Shown: positions 8,531 to 40,888 of the stretch, in pieces
How the letters are laid out: every line of letters starts with the position of its first letter
How positions within the stretch are numbered: the first letter of the stretch is position 1
Notes under the pieces: generated by a model
What the model saw: only the letters and a program-made list of their open reading frames with translations
Databases searched by the model: none
What the model was told of the DNA's origin: nothing
Virus record (IMG/VR): IMGVR_UViG_2556921664_000001
Span: 8,766 to 72,765 of that record
Length of the DNA stretch: 64,000 nt
Strand: one strand, 5' to 3'
DNA from: a virus
Lineage: Duplodnaviria > Caudoviricetes
Made by a program: the position numbers and the translations under genes

Positions 8531-11353
8531 TCATATATTTACAGCTTCACGCAGCTTTTCCCACACTTTAACCATTGCATACGTATCAAGACCACAGTAT
8601 TTAAGCAAATACCCACGATATTTTTCCAGTTCCTCTGGAGACATGTCAGCCATAGCTAGAAATGCATTTGATGCTTCAGTGCCATTATGAATACCTTCAA
8701 GATTGTGATAATCCAGCGCAGGATCATCCGGAAATAGTGCTGGTAACACAAGCTTGATAGAAGAACGTCCCTGCATTTCCTTGACATAATAATGCTCATT
8801 ATGAAACGGCATCTCAAGGTCTTGGATATGGTCATGGATATTCATCAAGTGTTCAGCCAAGTCAGGGAAAAGTTCCGCTAATTCCTTTACACGCCCTTGT
8901 TCGAATGATTTATGATATGCCAACGTACAACCATTCAACGTAATATCCATGCAAAGCTGCTCTGCTATCCCTCTACGTGGGTCTTCTCCAGGATATGCCA
9001 GATATTCCTTGTGTTTTAGTTCCCCTCCCTCCTGTTCAATATAGTGAAGGGAATACTGAAATACTATCTGTGCATAAGGCTTTGCATTATCATATTGTGG
9101 TACGGCCATTTGGCAAGATTCGAAATCAAGGAAATACAATGGATAGGATAACCCCACCAAAAATTTTTGAATCTCCTCTTTTTCAATATGCGGTGCCTTT
9201 TCAAAAAGCTCGTACTCTATCTGTATTTTCTTCACTCCTGCCTTATATAGCTGGTTGAAATCGATTATTCCCTGATGATAATATTGGATTTTTTTCTTCC
9301 ATTGTGGTGAGTTACCCGCGACATCAAATACATTAGGTTGTGGCAGGTGTCCGGTACAGTATTTCCAACAGTCGCACATTACACCATCTCTTTTGCAATG
9401 TTCATCAATGATATCTGGAGATTCGTCCTTTTGCTTCATGTACTCAGTAAATTTACCTAAATTAGCCTCCACCTCATCATGCTTGGCCTTTGCTTGTTCT
9501 GTAAAATCCACCACTGTGAAAAGATCCTGCAAATCAAGTTCTCCATGCCGCACATATTTATTGTTCAAATGCATTAAATAGACTCGATTCACCTCAAAAC
9601 CACACTTTTCCACCACAAAGCACTGGAAAGCTACATCATCATAATAATGATCCTTGATTTTCGCGGTACTCTTTACCTCATAAATATCCACTTTTTTCCC
9701 GCCAAGATGATGTAATATATCAACGCTACAGAAAAGATTGTCTACCGCAAAGGACGCCTCTGCAATGTACTCTTGCCCATTCTCCAAAAGTTCATTTGTC
9801 CGTGTAACCATGCTACCGAGATTGTTCTTATTAAAGGGCACAACAACACAACCATCAAATCGCTTTTGAGCCAGTATCCCCACCTCATTGCCAACAGCAA
9901 TACGTTCTTCAGAGGCCGGCGACTCATCGATAATCTCAGGCTTATTAGTTTTTAACCACAATGCCTTAGGGCACTGTGTCGCCATTACATACTTCGACTT
10001 GGAACAAATCAATGTAGATACCTCTGTAATCATATCGCCATATCCCAAATCTTTCATTTTTTGAATGAACTTTAAAAAATTTTTCTTAGTATTAGCTGCA
10101 CCCCATTCTCTGCAAATAACTACTGTAGTATTATCTCTCAGTACTATAGGATAATCTGTTAAAAATCTTGATTTATCCTTGTCTGGTACTTCAGAAAGAT
10201 TCTTTATCACGCCGTATGACCCCTGCAAATCCTTAGGAAATACTCTGCACAGTCCTTCATAATTAATATCAGGATGTTTTTCAACATAAAGGCCCACAAC
10301 AGATAATACAATTCTTCCTAATGCGGTTTGTTCACCATTAAATAGGTATCTTGAAGTTTTAGATTTGCCAGTTGGTTTATTATCATTATTTTTTTCTTTT
10401 TTAAATGATGTGCCATATTTTAGCGGCTTTGGTAGTTCATCTATGAATGAGCTGCTTACGTTGTTTACCATCGCCAGCTTATTAAATTGTTGCATATTTT
10501 CTTGTCCATACCTTGTATAAAACTGCTGACGCACATAATTTATTACATCAGGATTTTCACCAATCAGATAATTTGAGTTTCCACTTTTCGGGACAAGGAA
10601 ATAATTTAACGGGTCACAAAAACGTAGAAAATGTGCCTTGACAATATTCTTTTCTTCATCAGTCCAAATATCTGGGAGACGTCGTACATGATCTTCATTT
10701 TCTATCCAATCCGCCACCACCCCTCTAGGAAATAATTTATCACTTAAAGCTTCTGGCAAATAGAAATCATCACTTCTATGGTTATTTTCCTTTAAACTAG
10801 CAATATGTGCCAAATACCAACCTTTCCCATTTAAAATCCCCGTTTCTCTAGGATGTCCAAGAAATTGATTTTTGTTGGCTATCAACGCTTCTTCACTTTT
10901 TTTGCCATTATCATAGTGCATTGGATACATATTATCATTTAATAATTTAGCAAATTCCTCTGCTGTGGGAACAATGCCCTTGTGAGCCATATTATAAATC
11001 TCATGTACCTCAAAATTGCTGGCAAACACGTAGGAGCAACCGTCAGCCATAACAGTTTTTGCAGCGCGCCTATTTTTATACGGTCTTAGCCCGCGCTGTT
11101 CCCAATTCTTATTATTTCCGCCTTCATATTTTCTTATCAAAAATACCGCATCCGACCGGTCAATATACTCAACCAACATTTTGTGCCAAGCAATAGCGTA
11201 TTCGCTGTCTATTAGTGTAGGTTTAATACATTTCTCATACAATTCAGTAACGGTTTTTACTTCTTCATATTCTGGTAATGAAATTTCAAAATCAATTATC
11301 TTCTTTTCATTATGCCTTGAAAAATAATCTTGAATTCCTGTAAAAATTGCCAT
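8531..11353 (-). CDS. Multi-domain fusion: possible His-Me/HNH-like N-terminal domain, restriction-associated middle domain, and DUF2779-type PD-(D/E)xK plus RNase H-like nuclease
   Basis: The C-terminal ~490 aa start SKSKYVMATQCPKALWL and contain CSVDILH...IYEVKST (Cas4-like), a Cys cluster and YFLDFE...DTYAM. The N-terminus has WYLAHI...DPLNYFLVPK. Confidence 0.75.
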   Translation of the reverse strand: MAIFTGIQDYFSRHNEKKIIDFEISLPEYEEVKTVTELYEKCIKPTLIDSEYAIAWHKMLVEYIDRSDAVFLIRKYEGGNNKNWEQRGLRPYKNRRAAKTVMADGCSYVFASNFEVHEIYNMAHKGIVPTAEEFAKLLNDNMYPMHYDNGKKSEEALIANKNQFLGHPRETGILNGKGWYLAHIASLKENNHRSDDFYLPEALSDKLFPRGVVADWIENEDHVRRLPDIWTDEEKNIVKAHFLRFCDPLNYFLVPKSGNSNYLIGENPDVINYVRQQFYTRYGQENMQQFNKLAMVNNVSSSFIDELPKPLKYGTSFKKEKNNDNKPTGKSKTSRYLFNGEQTALGRIVLSVVGLYVEKHPDINYEGLCRVFPKDLQGSYGVIKNLSEVPDKDKSRFLTDYPIVLRDNTTVVICREWGAANTKKNFLKFIQKMKDLGYGDMITEVSTLICSKSKYVMATQCPKALWLKTNKPEIIDESPASEERIAVGNEVGILAQKRFDGCVVVPFNKNNLGSMVTRTNELLENGQEYIAEASFAVDNLFCSVDILHHLGGKKVDIYEVKSTAKIKDHYYDDVAFQCFVVEKCGFEVNRVYLMHLNNKYVRHGELDLQDLFTVVDFTEQAKAKHDEVEANLGKFTEYMKQKDESPDIIDEHCKRDGVMCDCWKYCTGHLPQPNVFDVAGNSPQWKKKIQYYHQGIIDFNQLYKAGVKKIQIEYELFEKAPHIEKEEIQKFLVGLSYPLYFLDFESCQMAVPQYDNAKPYAQIVFQYSLHYIEQEGGELKHKEYLAYPGEDPRRGIAEQLCMDITLNGCTLAYHKSFEQGRVKELAELFPDLAEHLMNIHDHIQDLEMPFHNEHYYVKEMQGRSSIKLVLPALFPDDPALDYHNLEGIHNGTEASNAFLAMADMSPEELEKYRGYLLKYCGLDTYAMVKVWEKLREAVNI

Positions 11354-11356
11354 CAG

Positions 11357-11458
11357 TCAGTTCCTCCTAAATCCATGTCCTGAAGTTGTCTGTTTTTTCG
11401 GTCCGCCCCAATTAATACAGGTTGCACATCTTAGAAAATATGTAGGATCCGGTGCCAT
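11357..11458 (-). CDS. 33-aa Cys-rich mini-ORF, truncated paralog of 23650..23838
   Basis: Not in the ORF track. MAPDPTYFLRCATCINWGGPKKQTTSGHGFRRN* with AAGGATGG RBS; shares CxTCxNWGG with the 62-aa protein. Confidence 0.55.
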   Translation of the reverse strand: MAPDPTYFLRCATCINWGGPKKQTTSGHGFRRN

Positions 11459-11583
11459 AAATAACCATCCTTGTAATAAATGTAATACATCTTTAATTTA
11501 AGTTTTTTGACCTCTGCATTCACTTCTATAATCCTGCTATAAGAAGGATATATATTATTTAGCCTACTTTTTTAAGCATCAAA

Positions 11584-12153
11584 TTAAAATTCACACTCAA
11601 GACCGCAATCAAGCAGTTCCTCCTCCAGTTTTCTCTTCATGATAACAACACCGGTCTTCTTCATTGGGCAGTGTTTCTCGGACATGGAATGAATTACATT
11701 GTCGGCAGTAGAAAGAACATTCTCAATTTCTTTGACAGCCTTATTTACAATTTTATTGCAGACCGCATGTATATCAACATCGTTGAAGTCAGTGTTGTCT
11801 ATTTTAAGTGGCTGCATGCTATCTTCTTGGATATTAAAAGTATAGGCAATCCCGTTCTTATATAAAACAGACTCAACATATTTAAAAGCTTCCATCACAT
11901 GTTTTGATGGTACATGTTCCTTAATTTCATTCTCAGTATCAAACATAATTTTTTTGAAATGCTCATCCACCTTCTCAGCAGTTCTTTTGGCAATCTTGTT
12001 ACTCAATTCTCTGGTCTCTAAATACATTTCACGATACCTAGCGCCTTTTCTCTTCAGCATAACAGCTTTGTAAAGCTTTTTCTTGATGTTCTTGCCCCTA
12101 CGTTTAACATTTGCCATTTTATTCAACTCTCCCCTGTCCCCAAAGTAAACCAT
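11584..12153 (-). CDS. Hypothetical basic helical protein (189 aa)
   Basis: Long ORF downstream of the PolC-like gene; Lys/Arg-rich N-terminus. Confidence 0.7.
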   Translation of the reverse strand: MVYFGDRGELNKMANVKRRGKNIKKKLYKAVMLKRKGARYREMYLETRELSNKIAKRTAEKVDEHFKKIMFDTENEIKEHVPSKHVMEAFKYVESVLYKNGIAYTFNIQEDSMQPLKIDNTDFNDVDIHAVCNKIVNKAVKEIENVLSTADNVIHSMSEKHCPMKKTGVVIMKRKLEEELLDCGLECEF

Positions 12154-12258
12154 CCTGCATTTATAATCATTTATTACTTTCTATACACATCTTTAAAATC
12201 CTGCTGTATGGAAAAATATTATTATCCTAAACTATTGAGGAAATGCGGCCATGCTGGT

Positions 12259-14310
12259 TTATTCTGCATATACATCAATATAAGCCTGCTGATACTCTTT
12301 TGGATAGTGAACTTTATAGTACACCATACGATATAAAAGAGCTGTATAGTCAATGGCCTGGGCTCTGGAAACCAAATATCTGATCTTTTGGCAGGAGTCA
12401 ATATACCAATCTGGTATATTATGTTCTTTTAGAATTGCCACCATATCAGGTTTTATGCCACGTCCCTTGCGTACAGCTTCCATTATTTTAACTGCCGTCA
12501 TTGGTTCAATTCCCATCCCAATAAGGTATGTCATAATATCATCACGTGTAGCTATAACCTCTTTGAAGGTACACACCCCATCCTTAAGCAGAAGTTCGGT
12601 ATTATTATTCCATGCCCCGGAATCAAATGATGCCAATGCAATGATTTTTACAAGCTCATTCATACTGCTTGGCTTTACCATGGACATAATCTGGTAAAAC
12701 AGCTTGCTTAGTTGAATTCCCATTTGCCCAGATGTTCCCTTATTCTCTTTCATGACATCACCAAATGATTCTGGCTTCAAGGAACATAAACATGATAGCG
12801 TTTCAGCATCGCTAAGGGATATATCTCTAATCCGGTAATTAGTACTGTCCTCCATTTTTTTCAGAAAATCCATCTCCCTAAGTGGCAGCATATCAAGCTT
12901 TATCAGATCCCCTAATAGTGCGCGATAATCAAAATAAGTTGTTAACCACTGATCATCAGTATCTTCGGATATATACTGAGTGGGCGTAAAACAATGAACA
13001 TCCATATCCTGGGGAATCAGCATCAATGCGGCTGGATGAACGCCTGTATCTGACGGGATATTTATTATCCCCGGTTTAAAGACGTTATTTTCCCCCAATA
13101 TTTCCTTTATATATGAACGAAGCATCGGGATCTGCTGAGCAGAATAACAAATGTCAATATCCGGTATTTTTCTGCCATCAAAGCCAAGAAAAACTGCATA
13201 AGACATGTCCCAGCCGTCTTTTATCAGCGGTTCACCGCAAATAGGACAATTTTGATCAGGTAAATCGGCTCCAAATACGTATTCATTATCAGTAGCAAAT
13301 TCACTGTGTTTACATTTTGGGCAGCGCCAATGGGGCGGAAGAGGATTAATATCCGTAATCCCCAACAGATTTGCAACCAATGAGGAACCTACGGAACCGC
13401 GGGAGGTAGTACTATAACCATTCCCATGGGTTTTATCTGCAAGCTTCCGGGAAATTAAATACAGCGACGAATAACCATTCCTGGTGATAATTGACAGTTC
13501 CTTATCAAGTCTTTCTTTCACCACCGCAGGGAGATTTTGACCATATATCCTGTGCGCTGCTTCGTATGAAAGATTTTTTACAGTTTCTTCCGCCTCAGGC
13601 AAAACAGGCAGATGGATTCCTTCCGGTATTGGTCTTAGTCGGTCAATCATATCTGAAATAAGCTGCGGGTTATTGATCACAACATCATAAGCTGTTTTTT
13701 CTCCAAGATAACTGAAGGATTTCAACATTTCATCTGTTGTTTGTAAAACTTCTATACCTTGGTCAGCAGCCACTACGGACTTATTAATTTTTGCCGCTAA
13801 CTCCACAAGTTTTATATTGGTGTCACACAAATCATCATCTGGCTGAATTTCCAAGTAATCATAAAAGGCGGCAATTTCCAAAAGCCTTTCTTCACTTTTA
13901 TGTGAGGCTATGGCCTGTATAAGCTGACCATCAAGCCCTGCAGCCCCTACGAGTAATCCTTCACGGTGTTGTTCCAAAATTTCTTTTGATATACTATGAG
14001 CCTCGTTTCCTGGCTTGGTATGTAATAATGTAACCAAGTTATACAGATTTTGAAGACCAATCTTATTTTTGGCCAAAACAATCACGTGATATACAGATAA
14101 TAAATCTGCATCTTCCGTCGACAATAAAATTTCCATGCCGTAGATTATTTTGATGTCAAGATTATCCCCCTCAACAATTTGCATAGCCTCCGGAAACGCC
14201 TTTACTGAACAGATATCAGTGATTGCCACAGCTTTCCGACCTCTCCGGGCGGCTGTACTAATATATTCTTTCACGGACATTTCATTAGCTATTTTACTTG
14301 ATAATTTCAT
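12259..14310 (-). CDS. Minimal PolC-like family-C DNA polymerase (degenerate PHP, Zn finger, palm/fingers; no OB, exonuclease or C-terminal duplex/clamp-binding region)
   Basis: RGSVGSS, CPKC...CPIC, KIPDIDI, KLDML, TRDDIM, VRKG, PDWYIDSC and YKVHYP all match PolC motifs, but the protein is only 683 aa. Confidence 0.88.
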   Translation of the reverse strand: MKLSSKIANEMSVKEYISTAARRGRKAVAITDICSVKAFPEAMQIVEGDNLDIKIIYGMEILLSTEDADLLSVYHVIVLAKNKIGLQNLYNLVTLLHTKPGNEAHSISKEILEQHREGLLVGAAGLDGQLIQAIASHKSEERLLEIAAFYDYLEIQPDDDLCDTNIKLVELAAKINKSVVAADQGIEVLQTTDEMLKSFSYLGEKTAYDVVINNPQLISDMIDRLRPIPEGIHLPVLPEAEETVKNLSYEAAHRIYGQNLPAVVKERLDKELSIITRNGYSSLYLISRKLADKTHGNGYSTTSRGSVGSSLVANLLGITDINPLPPHWRCPKCKHSEFATDNEYVFGADLPDQNCPICGEPLIKDGWDMSYAVFLGFDGRKIPDIDICYSAQQIPMLRSYIKEILGENNVFKPGIINIPSDTGVHPAALMLIPQDMDVHCFTPTQYISEDTDDQWLTTYFDYRALLGDLIKLDMLPLREMDFLKKMEDSTNYRIRDISLSDAETLSCLCSLKPESFGDVMKENKGTSGQMGIQLSKLFYQIMSMVKPSSMNELVKIIALASFDSGAWNNNTELLLKDGVCTFKEVIATRDDIMTYLIGMGIEPMTAVKIMEAVRKGRGIKPDMVAILKEHNIPDWYIDSCQKIRYLVSRAQAIDYTALLYRMVYYKVHYPKEYQQAYIDVYAE

Positions 14311-14412
14311 AATTATTCCCCCTAAGTTTAAAACAATAATGTATAATACTAATATACGTTGAAATTTAAATTGCGCTCCAAAATCAATCAGCCTGATACG
14401 GAGGTGTGAGTT

Positions 14413-15588
14413 TTGACAGAAGGTAACAATCTGACAGCTACAGAAAAATTAAGAAAAGCCCGAATCAGAATAATGAACAAACAGCCTTTTTTCGCTTCCC
14501 TTATTATGCTCCTTACACCAGTTGAAGATGATTCTATAGGAACAGCAGCGACTGATTCAAAAAACCTATTCTATGCTCCTTCTTATATAGAAAAATTGTC
14601 TATTGAGGAAGTTATTTTTGTGTATCTGCATGAGATTCTCCACTGTGCCTTAGGACATATCTGGAGACAAAAAGATAAGGATCATAGACTTTGGAATATT
14701 GCCACTGATTATGCAATTAATGGTATGTTACATAACGATATAAAACTAAATCATTTTCTCAAAATGCCACCAAGTCTGCTATATAAAGAAACATATTATG
14801 GTATGTCAGCGGAAGAAATATATGATTCCCTTAAGTCAGATATTGCTAGAGCTTTCGTTAGCGTTAGCGTTGGCAATGGTGATGATGGTGATGATGAGCC
14901 TCAAAACCATGTTTTATGGAAAAATGCTGATAAAAACGAACGGATAAACTGGCAATACAATACCAAGATTGCAATTAAAAATGCAGAAAGATATGGTAAA
15001 GCACCTTCATATCTTACAGAAATAATTAAGCGGTTAAAACCACCACAAAAGGATTGGCGAACTCTATTGAATGAATTTGTCCAAGAGGAAATAAATGATT
15101 TTTCACTTATGCCGCCGGACAACCGTTTTGATGGGGATTTTTTCATTTTTTCCTTTTCCGATACAACAGAAGTGGTAAAAGACTTGCTGTTCTTTGTTGA
15201 TACATCTGGTTCCATGCGAATAAATGAATTAGAGGCTTGTTATTCGGAAATAAACGGTGCCCTCCAGCAATTCAATAGGCAACTACAGGGTAAACTTGTT
15301 TTTTTTGATGCAGTTGTCCATGAACCATTATACGATTTTGACGACATCAAAGATATCAGATCTGTATGTCCTATAGGCAGGGGCGGTACCTGTTTTTATG
15401 CTATATTTGATTTTTTAAAAGAATATAAGAATGCTCATAATCCCATTGCGGGTGTCATTATTTTAACTGATGGACAATGTGACTACGATGACATCGATGC
15501 ACCAGATTTTCCTGTTCTTTGGGTATTTACTACCCATGACAACAATCCACCCTTTGGCTTATCTACTACCATCGAAGTCAGCCCATAA
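14413..15588 (+). CDS. DUF2201-type metallopeptidase-like plus vWA domain protein
   Basis: HEILH (HExxH), NIATDYAIN, MIDAS elements VDTSGSM, GGT and LTDG; TTG start with GGAGG RBS. Confidence 0.88.
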   Translation: MTEGNNLTATEKLRKARIRIMNKQPFFASLIMLLTPVEDDSIGTAATDSKNLFYAPSYIEKLSIEEVIFVYLHEILHCALGHIWRQKDKDHRLWNIATDYAINGMLHNDIKLNHFLKMPPSLLYKETYYGMSAEEIYDSLKSDIARAFVSVSVGNGDDGDDEPQNHVLWKNADKNERINWQYNTKIAIKNAERYGKAPSYLTEIIKRLKPPQKDWRTLLNEFVQEEINDFSLMPPDNRFDGDFFIFSFSDTTEVVKDLLFFVDTSGSMRINELEACYSEINGALQQFNRQLQGKLVFFDAVVHEPLYDFDDIKDIRSVCPIGRGGTCFYAIFDFLKEYKNAHNPIAGVIILTDGQCDYDDIDAPDFPVLWVFTTHDNNPPFGLSTTIEVSP

Positions 15589-15639
15589 CAGTTATCCTAA
15601 TATGACGCATATTAATTTTGTACGAGGGAGGAACATATA

Positions 15640-16755
15640 ATGTCTTATATGGATATGATTAGTAATGAAAATTATTCACAAATTTCCTGTAATAAATTTA
15701 TCAATATCATGTCTGCCCTGTATTCCGAAGGAGATTTTTCCAAACAACCAACCAAAATGTTATGGGGCCAGCCAGGTGTTGGTAAATCCCAGGCAGTACA
15801 ACAATTTGCCAACATACTGTCAGAAAAAACCGGTAAAAAAACTAATGTAAAAACTGTTTCCTTACTGCTGATGAATCCTATTGACCTTAGAGGTATTCCA
15901 GCCAAATCGAAAAATGAACGGAACGAAGATGTGGCCAAATGGTTATCCCCGGATATATTCAAATTGGATCCCAGTGATGATGTTATCAATATCTTATTTT
16001 TGGACGAAATATCAGCGGCTCCACCATCTGTTCAGGCTGCGGCATATCAAATATGCCTTGACAAACGCATCGGCGAGCATGTTCTCCCGACCAATACTAT
16101 AGTAATATGTGCCGGCAACAGGGTTTCAGACAAAGCTGTGGCATTTAAAATGCCTAAGCCCCTGTCCAATCGTCTTACTCATTTTGAAATAATTGCTGAT
16201 TTAGATTCATGGCGTTCATGGGCTTACCAACACAATATCAATGACTCAATCATTGCGTTTATTACATGGCGACCAGATTACCTTAATAAATTTGACCCCT
16301 CAAACGATGATGTGGCTTTTCCTACTCCCCGTTCCTGGGAATTAGTCAACACTTATATGCAATTTGGCTTTGAGGAAATGTTTGAATGTATAGCTGGAAC
16401 CGTCGGACTGGCAACAGCCATTGAATTAAAATCATTTATTGATCTTTCCGTAACACTACCTACTTTTAGTGATATTATTGCCAACAAAGCCGAATTACCA
16501 GCTAATAATGATCCTGCTGTAATGTATGCTATTTCTTCAATGATTACTTCAAATGTAGTGCAAAATGGCTCTACGCTTAAACTGAAAGAAAAGAATAATC
16601 TGTTTAAATATATTGGCTCCTTTAAGCATGATGAATACATTCTCCTTACATTGCAAGATATTATAAAAAATTGCCCTGAATTTAATAAATATCTTTTAAA
16701 AAACAAAGATACCATCAAATTTATTAAGCAATTTCGCAATGATTTAACTAATTAA
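15640..16755 (+). CDS. MoxR-like AAA+ ATPase partnering the vWA protein
   Basis: Walker A GQPGVGKS, Walker B ILFLDE, AGNR, PLSNRLTH, PTPRSWE. Confidence 0.88.
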   Translation: MSYMDMISNENYSQISCNKFINIMSALYSEGDFSKQPTKMLWGQPGVGKSQAVQQFANILSEKTGKKTNVKTVSLLLMNPIDLRGIPAKSKNERNEDVAKWLSPDIFKLDPSDDVINILFLDEISAAPPSVQAAAYQICLDKRIGEHVLPTNTIVICAGNRVSDKAVAFKMPKPLSNRLTHFEIIADLDSWRSWAYQHNINDSIIAFITWRPDYLNKFDPSNDDVAFPTPRSWELVNTYMQFGFEEMFECIAGTVGLATAIELKSFIDLSVTLPTFSDIIANKAELPANNDPAVMYAISSMITSNVVQNGSTLKLKEKNNLFKYIGSFKHDEYILLTLQDIIKNCPEFNKYLLKNKDTIKFIKQFRNDLTN

Positions 16756-16798: not shown

Positions 16799-17908
16799 AT
16801 GGATACAAATATTTCTGCAGAAAATTTAATTTTAGATCACATGGCACTTAATACCATATATATCATCAGCAAAGAAGCATTGGCAAAATTCCCAGATAAA
16901 TCTATAATTATCGGCGTGGACTACAAAATGGAATTTTTAACAGGGACTGAAGATTATGATTTAGTATGCTGTTATAAATTCCAAAGATATGATTATGTAT
17001 ATTATATTTTTTTAAATCTTACAGGTTGGAGACACCTCCTTATAATTAACGAACCAATTAACGAAATTGGCCCCGCAAAAACATATCACAATCCTAATAT
17101 TTGTAGCAAAAAAGCTGTTGAGGAAGCAAAAGAATTACCCCGTGTTTTTTTTAATCACTTTCACCTATACTATGATATAGTCAACGATAAAATTCACTGT
17201 GAATATAATATTAACAGCTATATGTATAGAAATGAAATAAACGCTTTATTTCATTCTCTACTTACTTTTCTTGCACTTAACCCGTCAGAGCATCCAGATG
17301 TTTTACAATTTTTGCAAAATAATATTGTTGATAGATACATAAAAAAAAGAGAAAGCATTCTATTTACCTTTAGCAAAGACAGAACGACTGTTAGCCATTT
17401 TACCTATATTGATTTTTATAATGAATCAGCTAAACATATATTAGTTGCAGCCGTATATATTGATCAAACTGATCAAAAATGCTATTTTTTGGGTGGGCAT
17501 AAAGCAAGGTGTATTGATGATTCATTGAGGTTAAGCAATAATAATAAATACTACATTGACAATCAAAACATGCCCAATAGGAAATATTATGATTTGTCAA
17601 AAATGAATGTTGATGATAATGAATTTAGTTATTTTATCGAAAATTTTTACCCACATAAAGCCTCAATCGCCAAAATAGACTATTACTATGATAGTGGCTT
17701 ATTAATTAGGTCAACTGATGATCGTATTAAAATAATTTTTAATACCTACAAAGAAAAGGAAGATGGTATTTTGTTCCTTTTCAAGCGTAATATAGTAATC
17801 GATGAGAAATTACAACTAAAATTTAAAAAATTACCAAAAAAAGCCAAACGCCTTGATACTGAACACTATCGAAAAGTTATTGATCGTTACTTAGCGACAA
17901 TAATATAA
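16799..17908 (+). CDS. Hypothetical protein (369 aa), very AT-rich
   Basis: Long ORF in the operon with vWA/AAA; Tyr/Ile/Asn-rich; no motif recognised. Confidence 0.7.
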   Translation: MDTNISAENLILDHMALNTIYIISKEALAKFPDKSIIIGVDYKMEFLTGTEDYDLVCCYKFQRYDYVYYIFLNLTGWRHLLIINEPINEIGPAKTYHNPNICSKKAVEEAKELPRVFFNHFHLYYDIVNDKIHCEYNINSYMYRNEINALFHSLLTFLALNPSEHPDVLQFLQNNIVDRYIKKRESILFTFSKDRTTVSHFTYIDFYNESAKHILVAAVYIDQTDQKCYFLGGHKARCIDDSLRLSNNNKYYIDNQNMPNRKYYDLSKMNVDDNEFSYFIENFYPHKASIAKIDYYYDSGLLIRSTDDRIKIIFNTYKEKEDGILFLFKRNIVIDEKLQLKFKKLPKKAKRLDTEHYRKVIDRYLATII

Positions 17909-18498
17909 CCCCGTTTTTTAAAACAATTCATAACCACCCTTGCCCATTTAGAATAATCCTGTCCCCAGGCCCCCTTCATATTGCCATCAGCAAGTTCTTT
18001 TAATATTTCCTTCCGTGACTGGAAAAAGCTGGCAAATTCAGGATAATCACTGCCATATTTTTTCAAAAATTCTTTAATGTTTGCTTTTGCAAATATTTCC
18101 ATTGCAAAGATCAAGCCCTCCAAATCTTCATAACCATGTCCCATAAAATCCCTGTCCATACAGCCAGCAAATATTTTGCTAAGCTGATCCAGAAGGCCAG
18201 GGATTTTTTTCACCCCATTATACTTTGTAAGGGCATGAACAATAATTCCGGTTATCATATATGTTGGTTCATATATGTACATAACACGGGCATCATCCGG
18301 CATATCAGAAATATCTTCCATGTGCCAAAGAAGAATTTTGGAATTATGCTCAGTTCTCTTCGCTGCTTTTAAAACGGTTGAAATAAAATTGACTGACTCC
18401 GCCTCGGAAACCTTATTCTCAATATATTCCTCAAAATTTTCTTTCACAATTTCCAAAAATTTATCCGGTTTGTTCTCATTAATAAAATTAGTGTTCAT
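17887..18498 (-). CDS. Hypothetical protein (203 aa)
   Basis: Overlaps the stop of the MotA-like gene; 3' end overlaps the convergent 369-aa gene. Confidence 0.7.
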   Translation of the reverse strand: MNTNFINENKPDKFLEIVKENFEEYIENKVSEAESVNFISTVLKAAKRTEHNSKILLWHMEDISDMPDDARVMYIYEPTYMITGIIVHALTKYNGVKKIPGLLDQLSKIFAGCMDRDFMGHGYEDLEGLIFAMEIFAKANIKEFLKKYGSDYPEFASFFQSRKEILKELADGNMKGAWGQDYSKWARVVMNCFKKRGYIIVAK

Positions 18499-19396
18499 AA
18501 TTATCCCCCCTATAATTTTCCCAAAACCTTAAATCAGCAGACCAGTTAGGATCAAAGAAAACATCCAAAACCTTGACATCCTTGTACTCGTCCAAAAATG
18601 GCTGTCTGAGCAGTTCATCCTGTTCCTCAGAATTTAAATAAACAAGCTGGCTTCGTAATATTTCAGTTGGAGCAACACCTTCCTGTATCAAAACATGCCC
18701 TCTCATTACCTGCTGCTGAATATTTTTTTCATTGTCCCAGTAGCTGTGTAATCTGCCAGGCAACAAAATACCGATAATAATGCTTAAAAGCAGACTCAAT
18801 ACAGTCAGCAGGCACACACATATAATGCTTTCTGGTGGATTATTCAAACCAATAATTGTGCGAATAGCAAGATCCAGCCCTCCAGCTATTCCCCCAAGCA
18901 GTCCTATTACCAATATACTCATTCCCAACTGCCTCAAGATATTAATTTTTTCATAAATTTTCTGACGGCCGATTGAACCAGCACGCTGCAACGCTCCTTT
19001 AATATCCTCCGGTTTATAGCCATTGAGAACCATTTTTTTGCCCATGTGATATACAAAATTCGGATAATTTTTATCCAAGGAAAATTCAACAGCCGAAGTG
19101 ATTCCCCTCCTTCTGAGAACCCAACATGCCGTAAGAAATAATCTTGCCAAAAATAGAGATTCGCCCTGCATTCTGTTTTGAAGTGGTAGATCACTGGCAA
19201 AAACTTCTTTCCACTTGGCGTTAAAGGATACTGCTGAAAAAACGACAAAGCCTATGCCAAGATATGTGATTAATACAGGCCAAAGGTTATCCAAATACAG
19301 CGTAGCTGTTGCTCCACCGATAAACAGGATAACTCCGAGGATAATATACCATTCTGTTTCCATATTTCTTTTCATAGCAATTCCCTTTCCTTTCAT
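18488..19396 (-). CDS. Divergent MotA/TolQ/ExbB-like membrane protein with no MotB partner
   Basis: Four TM segments. The cytoplasmic loop MGKKMVLNGYKPEDIKGALQ and the tail GHVLIQEGVAPTEILRSQL resemble the MotA GLQLVVDG.DP and EG.L.IQ.G.NP motifs. Confidence 0.65.
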   Translation of the reverse strand: MKGKGIAMKRNMETEWYIILGVILFIGGATATLYLDNLWPVLITYLGIGFVVFSAVSFNAKWKEVFASDLPLQNRMQGESLFLARLFLTACWVLRRRGITSAVEFSLDKNYPNFVYHMGKKMVLNGYKPEDIKGALQRAGSIGRQKIYEKINILRQLGMSILVIGLLGGIAGGLDLAIRTIIGLNNPPESIICVCLLTVLSLLLSIIIGILLPGRLHSYWDNEKNIQQQVMRGHVLIQEGVAPTEILRSQLVYLNSEEQDELLRQPFLDEYKDVKVLDVFFDPNWSADLRFWENYRGDNYEH

Positions 19397-19399
19397 TTA

Positions 19400-21526
19400 C
19401 TACATCATGCAAAAACCAATTTGATGTTTTTCAGCTGGCTCCGAACCAAAAAATTCGTTTTTAAAATCATTAATAGTAAGATTTTTAATCATTTGTCTGT
19501 CAATATTTTCAGCGGAATAAGAATTGACCAGATATTCAGCGTGAGAAAGTACAGCAGCCTCCAACACATTGCGAACAAATCGGCCATTGCCAAAATCCTT
19601 TTTATCAGAAGCTTTTTGGAACAGTTCACGGCAATAATCCATGCTTTCCTCATCCAGCCTGTATCCCTGCTCTTCTGCCATGCACTCAAGAATTCTGCAC
19701 AACTCATGTGCATCATAGTCAGAAAAGTCCAGATGAAACGCTATACGGCTTCTTAGGCCAACATTACGTTCAATAAATGATTTCATTGGCTGTGGGTATC
19801 CTGCAAAAATAACCAGCACATTTTCCCGGCGATTTTCCATTTCCTGCACAATGGTATTTATAGCTTCATCCCCATATAGTCCCTGTCGTTCATCCACCAG
19901 AGAATATGCTTCATCAATAAATAGTATTCCCCCTTCAGCTTCATCAAATTTTTTGATTACAATAGGAGCTGTGTGCCCTACAAACTTGCCTATCAGATCA
20001 GCCCTTCCACACTCCACGAAAGCGCCGGTGGAAAGAATATTACGCTCCTTCAGTATGCCGGCCAGCAGACGTGCCACTGTGGTTTTTGCAGTACCCGGAT
20101 TACCGGTAAAAACCATGTGCAGGGCAGGCTTTTTAAGTTCTATTCCTTTTTTCTTTTGGATCGCCTGTATCTGATGTACAGCCAATATGCGATCAACTAA
20201 TTTTTTTACCTCCTTTAAGCCAATTAATTGCTGCAACTGTTCATAGGAATTATTTTCTACTTTTTCCTCTATTGTTTTATCAGCCGCCTTGATTCTGCGA
20301 TAAGCAGGGTAATGCTCCCATCTTATTAACTCATCAGCAGCTTTTTCGTAGGCTTCCCAGGCTTCTGTTACAGAATACGTTTTTCCGGCTGTAAAGACGT
20401 TTTTCAGTTCCTTGGCCGTGAATTTCCGTTGTCCACGACTAATGGCCAAATAATTTATATACTTTTTCGCTTGTTTTTCCCCTCCAACCCCTTCACTTAT
20501 AGTGACAAAATCAATCGCACCATTTAAGGATTCAATAAAACATCTGGTAGCATCAAGTTCTTTCTTGGCTGGTACAACCAGAATAAACAGCGTATTATTC
20601 CTATGCTGCTTTATTTCAGATACCAGATTATCAATATAATCTTCATGAAATGCATGTTTAAAATGTCCGCCTTTTCCTCTTTTTGTATCCATCCCCTCTG
20701 ACATATACAGTACCATGGTTGATTGCTGGGCCAAGGAAACGATAGAATTCCAAAAAGAAATTTTACTGTCGTGAGGTACAAAATCATAAAAAGAAAAGAT
20801 CCTTTTACTTTTAAGCCGATTCCTTGCATAAAGAGCAGATACCAAAAGGTCAATCATTTCCTGGGCTGTTTCTTGTCTTTCAGCCTGTATTATATAGTGA
20901 ACAGGATGGCCCCAAAATTCATTGCTGTTTTGAGCATCGTATATCCTGTCCAGCTCATCCCGTAAACTTTGATGGGCCATAATATTTTCCGCCTGATGTA
21001 TTGCATTATTGAGTTTTTTGGGAATGGCAGAAACTATATTTTCTTCAATACGATATTGCTTATGAACCGTCGAGTTTTTATTTTCAAAGTACTCCATGGA
21101 AAAATAATTCAAAATGGACCAGTGTGCTCTGATCAAATCTTCTTTATATCCCATTTTCACACACTCACAAAAATCCGAGCAGGTAATTTCTCTCAAATTT
21201 GTAATAAAGATACTTCTGATTCCGGAAATTTTATTATCAAAAATCATTTTTATCCGTTCTTCTACTTTGCTGAAATCCTCAAATTTCTGTTCCCGGTTGT
21301 GGGCCAATATCACACTGATCTTTTTAGCGTTATTATCTATATGATATACAAAGATACTCTGCCCTTCTTCGGCAATTTCCTTCCCCATGTCCATGTTAAT
21401 ATCCCTGAAAGCATCCCGATTATCTTTCCTGGATGCAGTTGATGCAGACTGTTTTGCTTCTGATTCCTCACTCACAGGAATATCCGTAATTTCTTCATAC
21501 TGTAAGTCAAAGTGGTATAGCAGCAT
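19400..21526 (-). CDS. SpoVK/CbbX/EccA-like AAA+ ATPase with a long N-terminal region
   Basis: LHMVFTGNPGTAKTTVAR, LIGKFVGHTA, GILFIDEAYSL, IFAGY, GLRSR, FGNGRFVRN. Confidence 0.9.
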   Translation of the reverse strand: MLLYHFDLQYEEITDIPVSEESEAKQSASTASRKDNRDAFRDINMDMGKEIAEEGQSIFVYHIDNNAKKISVILAHNREQKFEDFSKVEERIKMIFDNKISGIRSIFITNLREITCSDFCECVKMGYKEDLIRAHWSILNYFSMEYFENKNSTVHKQYRIEENIVSAIPKKLNNAIHQAENIMAHQSLRDELDRIYDAQNSNEFWGHPVHYIIQAERQETAQEMIDLLVSALYARNRLKSKRIFSFYDFVPHDSKISFWNSIVSLAQQSTMVLYMSEGMDTKRGKGGHFKHAFHEDYIDNLVSEIKQHRNNTLFILVVPAKKELDATRCFIESLNGAIDFVTISEGVGGEKQAKKYINYLAISRGQRKFTAKELKNVFTAGKTYSVTEAWEAYEKAADELIRWEHYPAYRRIKAADKTIEEKVENNSYEQLQQLIGLKEVKKLVDRILAVHQIQAIQKKKGIELKKPALHMVFTGNPGTAKTTVARLLAGILKERNILSTGAFVECGRADLIGKFVGHTAPIVIKKFDEAEGGILFIDEAYSLVDERQGLYGDEAINTIVQEMENRRENVLVIFAGYPQPMKSFIERNVGLRSRIAFHLDFSDYDAHELCRILECMAEEQGYRLDEESMDYCRELFQKASDKKDFGNGRFVRNVLEAAVLSHAEYLVNSYSAENIDRQMIKNLTINDFKNEFFGSEPAEKHQIGFCMM

Positions 21527-21786
21527 TTTTCTTCCTCCTCAAATTTTGTCTCTGTTAATCTTTGGTTTAATTAAACCAAAACATTTTACATCTGTCAAGA
21601 TTTAAAAAAATCATTTTATACATTTTCTTTTGAGTGCCATAAACCATACCGCATGTAACAGTTAAACAAGCCTGTAAATGCCGTTTTATTGGCATGTGAA
21701 AAAAGTATTTTAAAATGCACGATAAATTTTTCTTGACAAAGATGTGTTTTTTTGGTTTATTTAAACTATAGATTGGAGGAACGGAT

Positions 21787-25159: not shown

Positions 25160-25696
25160 TCACATATAGTCCGTTACACCGCGGGCAATGGCCCTCGCAA
25201 ACTCATCCTGGTTAAACCGTAAAAGCTTCTCATCATCCTCATTGGAAATAAATGCCAACTCCACAAGGACTGCTGGCATATCCGTATTGGTAAGGACATA
25301 GAGTCCGTTCTTACCCGGGGTTGCCATCTTAACTCCCCTGTCCACGGTTCCAAGGTGATCTACAATCTGGGACTGGATGCATTCAGCCAGATGCTTTCCA
25401 TCACTGGAACCAGCACAGTACCATGTTTCAGTTCCCTCCGCATATGGGGACTCCACACTGTTACAGTGAATGGAAATAAAAAGATCTGCATCAAGGTTAT
25501 TAGCCTCACTGCAGACCTCATATAATTCATCACTCTGTAACACAGCAGTTTCAATCCCCACGGCATTAAGGTAATGCTCTACCAGCTTACCAACGCTTAG
25601 TACCACATCACATTCCCTAAGACCTGTGACATCACTTACCGCCCCCGGATCTGGTACTCCATTTGGCGCATGGCCTGGATTAATAAATACCTTCAT
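25160..25696 (-). CDS. Endolysin, N-acetylmuramoyl-L-alanine amidase (Amidase_3 type)
   Basis: INPGH, E, ISIHCN and LVELAFISN zinc-amidase motifs; no cell-wall-binding domain. Confidence 0.92.
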   Translation of the reverse strand: MKVFINPGHAPNGVPDPGAVSDVTGLRECDVVLSVGKLVEHYLNAVGIETAVLQSDELYEVCSEANNLDADLFISIHCNSVESPYAEGTETWYCAGSSDGKHLAECIQSQIVDHLGTVDRGVKMATPGKNGLYVLTNTDMPAVLVELAFISNEDDEKLLRFNQDEFARAIARGVTDYM

Positions 25697-25697
25697 A

Positions 25698-25871
25698 TTA
25701 CTTCTCTCCTCTCTTTTCAACATGGTGCTTTCCAGCACCGCCAATATAACCTAAAAGACCGCTGGCAATACTCATGCTAAGCTCATTAAGATTTGAGTAA
25801 ATGGCTATGATGAGAGCTGCGGATAAGGCTACAACTACAACCAAGTCTGTAACATTAATTCTTTCTATCAC
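25698..25871 (-). CDS. Holin-like two-TM protein
   Basis: Two hydrophobic segments and a basic C-terminus; GTG start at 25871 with GGAGGT RBS; directly upstream of the endolysin. Confidence 0.65.
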   Translation of the reverse strand: MIERINVTDLVVVVALSAALIIAIYSNLNELSMSIASGLLGYIGGAGKHHVEKRGEK

Positions 25872-38946: not shown

Positions 38947-39642
38947 TTACATTCCTCCTAAAATAACTAAACGCTTCTGAAGTTCAGAAGCGTCAATACG
39001 ATTATCTGCTACCTTTTTGGCAGCTTTAAATTTATCCAAGAATGAATTGGTCACCGCAGCCCTTGAAAAAATCATGGCCTCCGGCTCATCATCCTCATCG
39101 GTGTCATAAAGAATACTGTCGGCAAATCCAAGCTCCACAGCCTTTTTGGCATTGAACCAGGACTCGGCATTCATCATGTTGGACAGCTGCTTTCTTGGAA
39201 GTCCAGTCTTAAGCTCGTAAGCATTGATGATGGATTCCTTTACTTCGGAAAGCATCTCTATGGCTTTCTTCATTTCCCGTTCATCCCCGATGGAGACAGT
39301 AGCAGGATTATGAATCATCATCATGCCAACAGGGGATATGGCCACATGACTTCCAGCCATAGCAATTACCGAAGCTGCTGAAGCAGCAATGCCATCAATG
39401 TGAACATCAACGCATCCTGGGTATTCCATGAGCATGTTATATATCTGTGCAGCAGCAAAACAATCCCCGCCAGGAGAATTAATCCAAACAGTGACTTTAC
39501 CCTGGCAACTGTTAAGCTCGTTTCTAAATTCTTCAGGTGTGACTTCATCACCGAACCAAGTCTGGTCAGAGATTTCCCCATTGAGCATAAGTATTCTTTC
39601 ATCATTATCATTCCTCACCCAATTCCAAAATTTACGACTCAT
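38947..39642 (-). CDS. ClpP-like prohead maturation protease
   Basis: INSPGG, GIAASAASVIAM, MMIHNP, ESWFNAKKAVELGFAD. Confidence 0.92.
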   Translation of the reverse strand: MSRKFWNWVRNDNDERILMLNGEISDQTWFGDEVTPEEFRNELNSCQGKVTVWINSPGGDCFAAAQIYNMLMEYPGCVDVHIDGIAASAASVIAMAGSHVAISPVGMMMIHNPATVSIGDEREMKKAIEMLSEVKESIINAYELKTGLPRKQLSNMMNAESWFNAKKAVELGFADSILYDTDEDDEPEAMIFSRAAVTNSFLDKFKAAKKVADNRIDASELQKRLVILGGM

Positions 39643-40888
39643 CTAAATCATTCCTTTCAGCAGGCTTTGCAAAAATACCCGCGTCTTTTAACTTTGTAAG
39701 ATTTCCGTTAATAAGGTATAGATTACCTCCTTCCTCAGCAGGAATAGGATTCATGTTCTCCAGCTCCCTTATGTCATTTGCTGACATCCAGCCATTCTGC
39801 CTTGCCACAGCATAGCCATTCATCCGGCTCTGATAGTCCCCACGAAGAAGACCATCCACATTGAACCTGAAGAACAGCTGACTCTTTTCTGATGGCAGCA
39901 AAAGTGCCTGCTGCATTGCTTGTTCCCAGCGAACTATCCAAGGATTAAGGGTGTACATTACAAAATCCAAGGACTGCTGCTCAATATTAGAAAAGCTCGA
40001 CTTTTCAAGATCACCTACCATGTGTGGCGGTACTCTGAAAATTCGAGCTATCTCATTGATTTGAAATTTTCTGGTTTCAAGGAACTGTGCTTCATTAGGC
40101 GGTATGGCCATCTGCTTGAAAGTCATTCCTTCCTCCAGAACAGCAACGCTGTGACTGTTCTTACCAGAGAACTGGGACTTCCAGCTTTGGCGAAGTTTCT
40201 CAGGATCTTTAACAACACCTGGGTGTTCAAGTATTCCTCCCGGAGTGGCTCCATTGGCAAAGAAGGTAGCTCCATATTCCTCAGTGGCTATCGCAATACC
40301 GATGGCATTCTTGGCCATGGCAATAGGGCTGTATCCTATAAGGCCATCAAATCCAAGGCCCGGAATATGAAGCACATCCTCTCTTTTGAGAACCACTTCT
40401 TCATCCCGCTTCTCGGATCCTGCTTCATCAGAATTGCGTCTGTAGGTATATATCAGCCGCCCAGCCTTATTACGGCTTACATCCATCTTGTTTGGAAGAA
40501 GCGGATAAAGGCCGACCACCTCACCTTTGCCATTCCTTATAATCTGGGCATAGGCATTCCCCCAGAGAAGCAGATGGCTCATCATAGTCTCCCTGAAGAT
40601 AAAGCTGGTCATCTCAGGATTTGGCTCATCATGCAAAAGATGATAAAGCGGATGGCTGTAGAGCTTTTCCTTGCTGCCCTCCGCCCCGTACTGGTACACA
40701 TTAAGGGGCAGACTGGCTATTGCCTCAGAAAGTATTCTGACACAGGCATATACAGCAGTAACCTGCATGGATGTCCGTTCATTGACATTTCTCCCTGCGG
40801 TAGTGCCGCCAAATAAAAAAGGCCAATGGACTGATAAATAATCCTTTGGCTTATCCCTTGAACGAAACAGTTTAGAAAATAGATTCAT
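39632..40888 (-). CDS. Portal protein, HK97 family
   Basis: AVYACVRILSEAIASLP, LLLWGNAY, VLHIPGLGFDG, QFLETRKF, EIARIFRVPP. Confidence 0.95.
   Translation of the reverse strand: MNLFSKLFRSRDKPKDYLSVHWPFLFGGTTAGRNVNERTSMQVTAVYACVRILSEAIASLPLNVYQYGAEGSKEKLYSHPLYHLLHDEPNPEMTSFIFRETMMSHLLLWGNAYAQIIRNGKGEVVGLYPLLPNKMDVSRNKAGRLIYTYRRNSDEAGSEKRDEEVVLKREDVLHIPGLGFDGLIGYSPIAMAKNAIGIAIATEEYGATFFANGATPGGILEHPGVVKDPEKLRQSWKSQFSGKNSHSVAVLEEGMTFKQMAIPPNEAQFLETRKFQINEIARIFRVPPHMVGDLEKSSFSNIEQQSLDFVMYTLNPWIVRWEQAMQQALLLPSEKSQLFFRFNVDGLLRGDYQSRMNGYAVARQNGWMSANDIRELENMNPIPAEEGGNLYLINGNLTKLKDAGIFAKPAERNDLDES

Follow-up and report, generated by a model that had tools for sequence, protein, structure and literature searches.

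The question raised by the locus described here is what a relative of the flagellar stator protein MotA does in a mobile element when no MotB-type partner is encoded next to it. The locus lies in a 64,000-nucleotide stretch (positions 8,766 to 72,765) of the IMG/VR virus record IMGVR_UViG_2556921664_000001, hereafter the window, which is a prophage in a Selenomonadaceae genome of 2.68 Mb. Three minus-strand genes encode, in coding order, a 708-residue AAA ATPase (open reading frame (ORF) at 19400-21526), a MotA-like membrane protein (a 302-residue ORF at 18488-19396), and a 203-residue soluble orphan protein (ORF at 17887-18498). To our knowledge, every characterized member of the MotA/ExbB/TolQ/ZorA/GldL group functions in a 5:2 assembly, together with its own partner that has a single transmembrane (TM) helix and carries an essential aspartate. 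The answer that we tentatively prefer is that the MotA-like protein is the membrane component of a previously undescribed, defense-type conflict module of mobile elements, and not a part of a motor.

A hydropathy scan and the AlphaFold2 (AF2) model both place 2+2 TM helices around a large cytoplasmic domain in the MotA-like protein. This four-TM topology is shared with flagellar MotA, which is known from MotA5B2 stators of B. subtilis (6YSL), C. sporogenes (6YSF and 8UCS), and, as PomA, Vibrio (8BRD). In BLASTP, the protein matches the MotA of its own host over residues 73-265 (E 5e-11, 23% identity). Scores against curated families do not reach the respective cut-offs: 32.7 bits (3.7e-8) for NCBIfam MotA (PRK08124; cut-off 340 bits) and 12.4 bits (E 0.14) for Pfam MotA_ExbB (cut-off 22.9 bits). 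A word-index homologue search with this protein returned near-identical proteins only; an exhaustive protein search returned a family of 23 proteins in about 19 clusters, each about 290 residues long and encoded by an intact full-length ORF, at 25-56% identity. The two closest lineages (P0007 and P0008) are 56% and 41% identical to the window's protein. The family profile (A1) aligns over its full length with canonical MotA of the same bacterial class at about 1e-40 and with the solved MotA structures of B. subtilis and Clostridium at 1e-21 to 7e-24 (6YSL, 7e-24). The four-TM MotA-like protein proposed in the original prediction, which was made without database searches, is thus well founded.

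The AF2 model of the MotA-like protein has a predicted local distance difference test (pLDDT) score of 86. Its top 20 Foldseek matches are all MotA or PomA, and it superposes on MotA/PomA chains at Z 13.2-16.3 with a root-mean-square deviation (rmsd) of 2.8-3.5 Å over 194-221 residues (VIA). The corresponding Z scores are 7-8 for ExbB/TolQ and 6.2-6.7 for ZorA, so that the comparison with MotA and ZorA suggested by the original prediction comes out in favor of a MotA fold. Judged by its profile matches and predicted fold, the protein is a true homologue of flagellar MotA, nearer to MotA than to ExbB/TolQ or ZorA. In a phylogenetic tree, the members of the MotA-like family group as one clade with a support of 92/100, set off by a stem of 2.3 substitutions per site. 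The terminal branches of the clade measure 0.3-1.5 compared with 0.01-0.25 in canonical MotA of the same bacterial family, and its internal branches, too, exceed those of canonical MotA many times over. It is a small, previously undescribed, fast-evolving paralog clade of flagellar MotA. A search of the literature on PcfJ, MotA-like defense, and phage-encoded stators found nothing on this family.

Two other systems built on the same superfamily provide a frame for comparison. ExbB and TolQ of the Ton and Tol systems follow the same pentameric 5:2 logic, but the fold match to them is limited to Z 7-8, and no ExbD or TolR gene is found near the MotA-like gene. Zorya (ZorA/ZorB) has a MotA-superfamily membrane protein that operates outside motility, in defense islands and prophages and beside soluble partners, and it sets a precedent for the sensing of infection by such a pentamer (PMC11946911). 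ZorA, however, has a 70-nm coiled-coil tail and needs ZorB, which contributes Asp26 and a peptidoglycan-binding domain (PMC11946911). The MotA-like protein differs in having no such tail (about 40 residues past the MotA core), no B-type gene, no PADLOC match to ZorA, and a fold at Z 16 to MotA but only 6-7 to ZorA.

The residues that matter in a stator are kept in part. The TM3 proline of MotA is needed for the canonical power stroke. Among 22 aligned family members (host and B. subtilis numbering, which coincides with that of E. coli at R90 and E98), this position (P173 in E. coli, P155 in B. subtilis and in the host) is Leu, Phe, Ala, or Thr in 20 and Pro in none, whereas it is Pro in eight genuine canonical MotA proteins. 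In the window's protein it is Leu162, and the TM3 motif reads SILVIG where the host MotA has YAPTLG; the absence of the usual TM3 motif reported in the original prediction therefore holds, and the proline is lost in 22/22. The TM4 proline is displaced by two residues. The equivalent of the rotor-contact residue Glu98 is retained in 10/22 members, and in the window's protein the site is Val or Glu depending on the alignment (a one-residue insertion). Shared with MotA are the Arg90 equivalent (19/22), the small-residue (glycine) pattern of TM3, the C-terminal LQxGDSP helix, and the equivalent of E. coli T209, which is T198 here and Thr or Ser in 17/22. This TM4 threonine engages the MotB aspartate in the stator (10.1101/2020.05.15.096610). 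The periplasmic loops are shortened (TM1-TM2 loop), and a conserved C-terminal segment of about 40 residues is added. The invariant residues particular to the family, namely R179 at the periplasmic end of TM3, Q229, Q250, P266, and E79, argue for selection on a new surface.

A B subunit is missing from the locus. In the whole 2.68-Mb genome, MotB_plug and OmpA-domain models match only the flagellar MotB on contig 8, where it is paired with flagellar MotA (ExbB-ExbD-TonB is on contig 10); the window therefore contains none, just as the original prediction had read it. The operon leaves no room for a small ORF and has no single-TM neighbor. At six homologous loci, no MotB-like or single-TM gene adjoins the MotA-like gene: L032, L033, L037, and L039 have no single-TM neighbor, and L031 has unrelated TM proteins only, two genes upstream. 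None of these loci has space for such a gene either, and homologous operons, as far as these six show, are hence not routinely supplied with a MotB-like gene. Each of five other carrier genomes yields one significant MotB_plug match, located beside canonical MotA, and ExbD has no match in one carrier genome that is 99% complete. FliG, canonical MotA, and exactly one MotB are present in each carrier checked. With one MotB per carrier and no ExbD in one of them, no B subunit other than MotB was found throughout the six genomes checked. Ions in 5:2 motors pass between the A and B subunits, along a route that depends on the B-subunit aspartate (10.1101/2020.05.15.096610; PMC11946911), so a pentamer without a B subunit would have no known proton path. 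The unplugged ion channel entertained by the original prediction is for that reason mechanistically weak. Assembly of MotA without MotB and of apo TolQ has been reported (PMC11970459, PMC4987623; PDB 8GQY).

What accompanies the MotA-like gene elsewhere is a second line of evidence. Of 262 Selenomonadaceae species genomes, seven, spread over five genera, carry the family; one carrier is Selenomonas sp. AE3005. The subclade of the window is known from this prophage lineage only, and the neighborhoods were compared across six other loci from the species genomes. At all six, a large soluble PcfJ-like protein (PF14284, weak Sel1; 415-690 residues) is encoded directly before the MotA-like gene, and at four of them another follows it. 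The PcfJ-like family is absent from the window. The three-gene set is not a conserved unit; the joint occurrence of all three genes that the original prediction suggested as a check gave way to PcfJ-like flanks at the six other loci, with the 203-residue gene confined to this lineage.

The ATPase recurs near the MotA-like gene more loosely. In two carriers, full-length homologues of 37% identity lie 0.3-2.3 kb from the cassette of PcfJ-like and MotA-like genes and 2-4 kb from the MotA-like gene itself, and in a third carrier a truncated copy stands beside the cassette. An ATPase gene is found within about 4 kb of the MotA-like gene at three of the six other loci, or in 4/7 genomes and four genera once the window is included. 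The ATPase family is present in all seven MotA-like carriers as against 90 of the 262 genomes overall. The three best matches to the N-terminal half of the window's ATPase all come from carrier genomes, two of them being the copies that adjoin the MotA-like gene. The ATPase is linked to the MotA-like gene but often appears not to be co-transcribed with it in other loci. Further neighbors of the MotA-like loci are WYL-WCX regulators, a DUF2779/Cas4-like nuclease, Metallophos proteins, a RelB antitoxin, a GAP1/double-GTPase conflict system, and an integrase. A WYL-WCX regulator is also the commonest neighbor of ATPase-family loci (10/17), where the other partners vary among Metallophos, HD, NERD-helicase, PD-(D/E)XK, and DUF2779 nuclease genes, a PolC-like gene, and a vWA/MoxR pair.

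The ATPase itself is built of an N-terminal alpha/beta domain (residues ~1-130), a degenerate AAA-like domain without a P-loop (~160-410), and a C-terminal AAA+ domain with lid of the CbbX/SpoVK type (~425-695), in which Walker A (GNPGTAKT) and Walker B (FIDEAY) are intact. The Pfam matches are AAA (6.9e-16) and AAA_lid_6 (9e-12). The best NCBIfam matches are SpoVK (2.3e-77), CbbX (1.2e-68), and EccA (1e-55), all under the equivalog cut-offs (259, 231, and 189 bits against 423, 459, and 467 bits, respectively); the SpoVK/CbbX-like assignment in the original prediction is borne out at the level of the domain. The AF2 model (pLDDT 81.5) has a small N-terminal domain, a second alpha/beta domain, and the AAA+ domain, and superposes on CbbX 3SYK with Z 25.4, an rmsd of 4.1 over 268 residues, and 38% identity (VIA). 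Type II AAA proteins (p97, NVL, VAT, Rix7) align over residues 160-695 of the model. From this alignment and from a conserved GHPVHY at the P-loop position, the second domain is read as a dead first AAA domain; the invariant motifs come from an alignment of 47 sequences (A4). The protein thus resembles CbbX (the red-type Rubisco activase), SpoVK, and EccA in its AAA+ domain and lid, but differs from them in an extra N-terminal half of 420 residues and in its neighbors, which are WYL regulators and nucleases in place of genes for Rubisco, sporulation, or type VII secretion. CbbX threads a C-terminal tail in order to remodel its client.

We propose that the locus is an accessory (cargo) module of the prophage, drawn from a pool of conflict genes that would move between the islands of Selenomonadaceae. 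Its core would be a flagellar MotA paralog that has left the motor and most likely still assembles into an inner-membrane pentamer of the MotA type. With the TM3 proline lost and the rotor-contact glutamate unconstrained, the pentamer may have turned its own conserved cytoplasmic surface and C-terminal extension to other soluble partners, which would be PcfJ-like proteins in most lineages and the 203-residue protein and the ATPase here. The pentamer could then serve as a membrane-embedded sensor or effector of a defense or superinfection-exclusion type system, and a CbbX-type hexameric remodeler of the tail-threading kind might switch the pentamer or its partner on or off. Any ion conduction or rotation by the pentamer would require it to take up the flagellar MotB of the host, as these genomes yielded no other B-type subunit. 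In this view, the paralog offers soluble partners a platform at the membrane, and the ATPase is a linked but separable remodeler. This conflict-module reading draws on the prophage setting, the sporadic spread, the fast evolution, the conflict-island neighbors, the ATPase linkage, and the family-specific invariants.

Several observations weigh on the other side. The WYL-linked nuclease, polymerase, and helicase neighbors would fit a DNA-damage regulon equally well. As the ATPase family occurs far more widely than the MotA-like gene, it cannot be dedicated to that gene. With the queries used, no MotA-like member was found in IMG/VR, in INPHARED phages (tblastn), or in PLSDB plasmids (tblastn, 72,556 records), and PADLOC has no model for the MotA-like, 203-residue, or PcfJ-like proteins. 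The MotA-like gene of a closely related JGI contig (L078) differs from that of the window by 2 synonymous and 6 non-synonymous codons, which are too few for selection to be measurable. Among GTDB contigs, the single MotA-like protein as query gave no relative, and an alignment of three sequences gave Selenomonas sp. AE3005 only. A JGI metagenome scan gave two near-identical copies only, and PHROGs have nothing for the MotA-like or the 203-residue protein.

The strongest alternative, a serious rival although we rate it as unlikely, is a stator mimic: by capturing MotB dimers of the host or by docking on FliG, the pentamer would slow or alter swimming. Such a device would, for example, shield the lysogen from flagellotropic phages or bring about a lifestyle switch, with the ATPase loading or removing the pentamer. 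The descent of the clade from flagellar MotA and not from ExbB/TolQ or ZorA speaks for it, as do the retained equivalents of Arg90 (19/22) and Thr209 (Thr/Ser, 17/22) with the small-residue pattern of TM3, and the presence of FliG, canonical MotA, and exactly one MotB in every carrier checked, MotB being the only B subunit common to all six. The rotor-facing features of the family tell otherwise: Glu98 is kept in 10/22 members, the TM3 proline in 0/22, and the periplasmic loops are shortened. Its constant partners are PcfJ-like proteins, in conflict islands and not among motility or chemotaxis genes, and its rapid divergence is unexpected for a protein that has to fit MotB and FliG, both of which hardly vary. 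The unconstrained Glu98, the fast evolution, and the island neighbors lower the likelihood of a pure brake on motility. The dominant-negative stator subunit named by the original prediction is accordingly possible in principle but not favored, on account of the same Glu98 count and neighborhood.

A related explanation, which we consider improbable, is a 5:2-type motor that parasitizes the MotB of the host. The pentamer would assemble around a host MotB dimer, be turned by the proton gradient, and pass a signal or force to PcfJ-like, AAA, or 203-residue partners, acting as a Zorya-like infection sensor that brings no B subunit of its own and drains flagellar stators. The retained TM4 threonine leaves room for the borrowing of host MotB. 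Borrowing of this kind would merge the defense and stator-mimic ideas. Compared with the 5:2 complexes characterized so far, the family stands as a conserved clade out of flagellar MotA for which no dedicated partner was found at the locus or, flagellar MotB apart, in the genome, and which has retained the threonine for the aspartate. Should the MotA-like pentamer work alone, it would be a new use of the pentamer scaffold; should MotB be borrowed, a mobile element would for the first time be seen to draw on a subunit of its host's motor. The locus also ties together two uncharacterized families of gut and rumen Firmicutes, the PcfJ-like proteins and the tandem AAA proteins with a dead first and a CbbX-type second domain, and is a tractable handle on both.

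PcfJ takes its name from a conjugative plasmid. Together with the PcfJ-like (PF14284) flanks in 6/6 other loci, an integrase or prophage nearby, and an ATPase of the CbbX/SpoVK/EccA assembly-chaperone type, this name suggests a housekeeping device of mobile elements, in which the pentamer and the PcfJ-like proteins would act in DNA transfer, entry, or establishment and the ATPase would be an assembly chaperone. The chance of this being correct is also small: conjugation, relaxase, and type IV secretion system (T4SS) genes were not seen in any locus, the 72,556 plasmid records gave no match, the operon of the window has no PcfJ-like gene, and PcfJ itself has no established function.

It is very improbable that the three genes form no functional unit and are chance neighbors in mosaic cargo, the MotA-like gene being a decaying duplicate; the trio is not conserved beyond this lineage, a neighboring 369-residue gene is swapped in L078, and 2 synonymous stand against 6 non-synonymous changes in the L078 copy, but intact full-length ORFs in about 20 clusters at 25-56% identity with family-specific invariants, the confident model (pLDDT 86), the translational-coupling geometry, and the recurrence of AAA proximity in four genera all argue otherwise. 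A decoy directed against Zorya was set aside, given the distance of the fold from ZorA and the lack of a third MotA_ExbB-family gene in the host.

The coupling in the window is tight, and the coupled minus-strand operon described in the original prediction stands in this respect. A gap of 3 nt separates the stop codon of the ATPase gene from the first ATG of the MotA-like gene, and the latter gene overlaps the 203-residue gene by 11 nt. The predicted length of 302 residues needs adjustment, and the trio, as shown above, is not conserved elsewhere. A strong AAAGGAAAGGG ribosome site precedes the second ATG (M8, at 19375), and the homologues, 292-297 residues long and beginning MK, start at the same point; the most likely start is therefore M8, which gives a protein of 295 residues (18488-19375). 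Upstream of the ATPase gene, a divergent intergenic region of 260 bp (21527-21786), read directly from the sequence, contains a GAGGAGG ribosome site and a possible minus-strand promoter, TTGACA-17-TTTAAT. A consensus promoter scan lists weaker sites only in this region, and the promoter is accordingly putative.

The 203-residue protein is lineage-specific. It matches no Pfam, NCBIfam, PHROG, or PADLOC family at threshold, the nearest being Colicin/pyocin-immunity at 19.2 bits (cut-off 21.2 bits). Among 5.8 billion proteins, its homologues form two clusters only, at 98% and 71% identity, and the gene is retained in the 98%-identical L078. The ESM Atlas models of this protein and of the PcfJ-like proteins are of low confidence. 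The 203-residue protein, the N-terminal half of the ATPase, and the 369-residue ORF were considered as hidden relatives of the PcfJ-like family and rejected, with hhalign probabilities of about 1% or less. A FliG C-terminal domain within the PcfJ-like partners was likewise rejected, since canonical FliG alone was matched.

The prophage also encodes an Amidase_3 endolysin (25160-25744) and a portal protein (ORF 39632-40888) with about 70% identity to annotated gut-phage portal proteins. Past the lysis genes comes the mosaic cargo region that holds the operon, along with a PolC-like gene, a vWA-peptidase/MoxR pair, a DUF2779 nuclease, and an M-S methylase fusion. A 369-residue ORF without a family match (16799-17908) is convergent with the operon. 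L078 is otherwise 90-98% identical to the window and has unrelated DNA in place of this ORF, and the position is therefore a variable slot.

The same few genes accompany ATPases of this type (P0001) in changing combinations at 8531-16755 of the window and in L032, L064, L067, L072, and L076. The recurring set comprises the DUF2779 nuclease, PolC-like, vWA-peptidase with MoxR, WYL-WCX, Metallophos, and NERD-helicase genes, and has the appearance of a common pool of cargo or of a larger regulon under WYL control. The host genome encodes the ATPase family a second time on contig 1 (~157-159 kb; L064 7146-9407); this copy, about 29% identical in the N-terminal half, adjoins a WYL-WCX regulator, a PDDEXK_4 nuclease, a pentapeptide-repeat protein, and a PolC-like gene of 1139 codons. 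In L033 (7301-7969), a calcineurin-like phosphoesterase of 222 residues is encoded between the ATPase and the PcfJ-like/MotA-like pair; it matches the PADLOC candidate system PDC-S10 weakly (E 7.8e-7), and its family adjoins the ATPase in three other loci. In Selenomonas sp. AE3005 (L031 1893-5444), GAP1-N2/GAP1-M and double-GTPase conflict-system genes lie directly upstream of a PcfJ-like, MotA-like, PcfJ-like cassette, with an integrase downstream. A solitary PcfJ-like/Sel1 protein of 698 residues, from the family whose genes flank the MotA-like gene at other loci, is encoded on host contig 8 (L042 8565-10661), between a Fic gene and a Cas9-Cas1-Cas2 locus.

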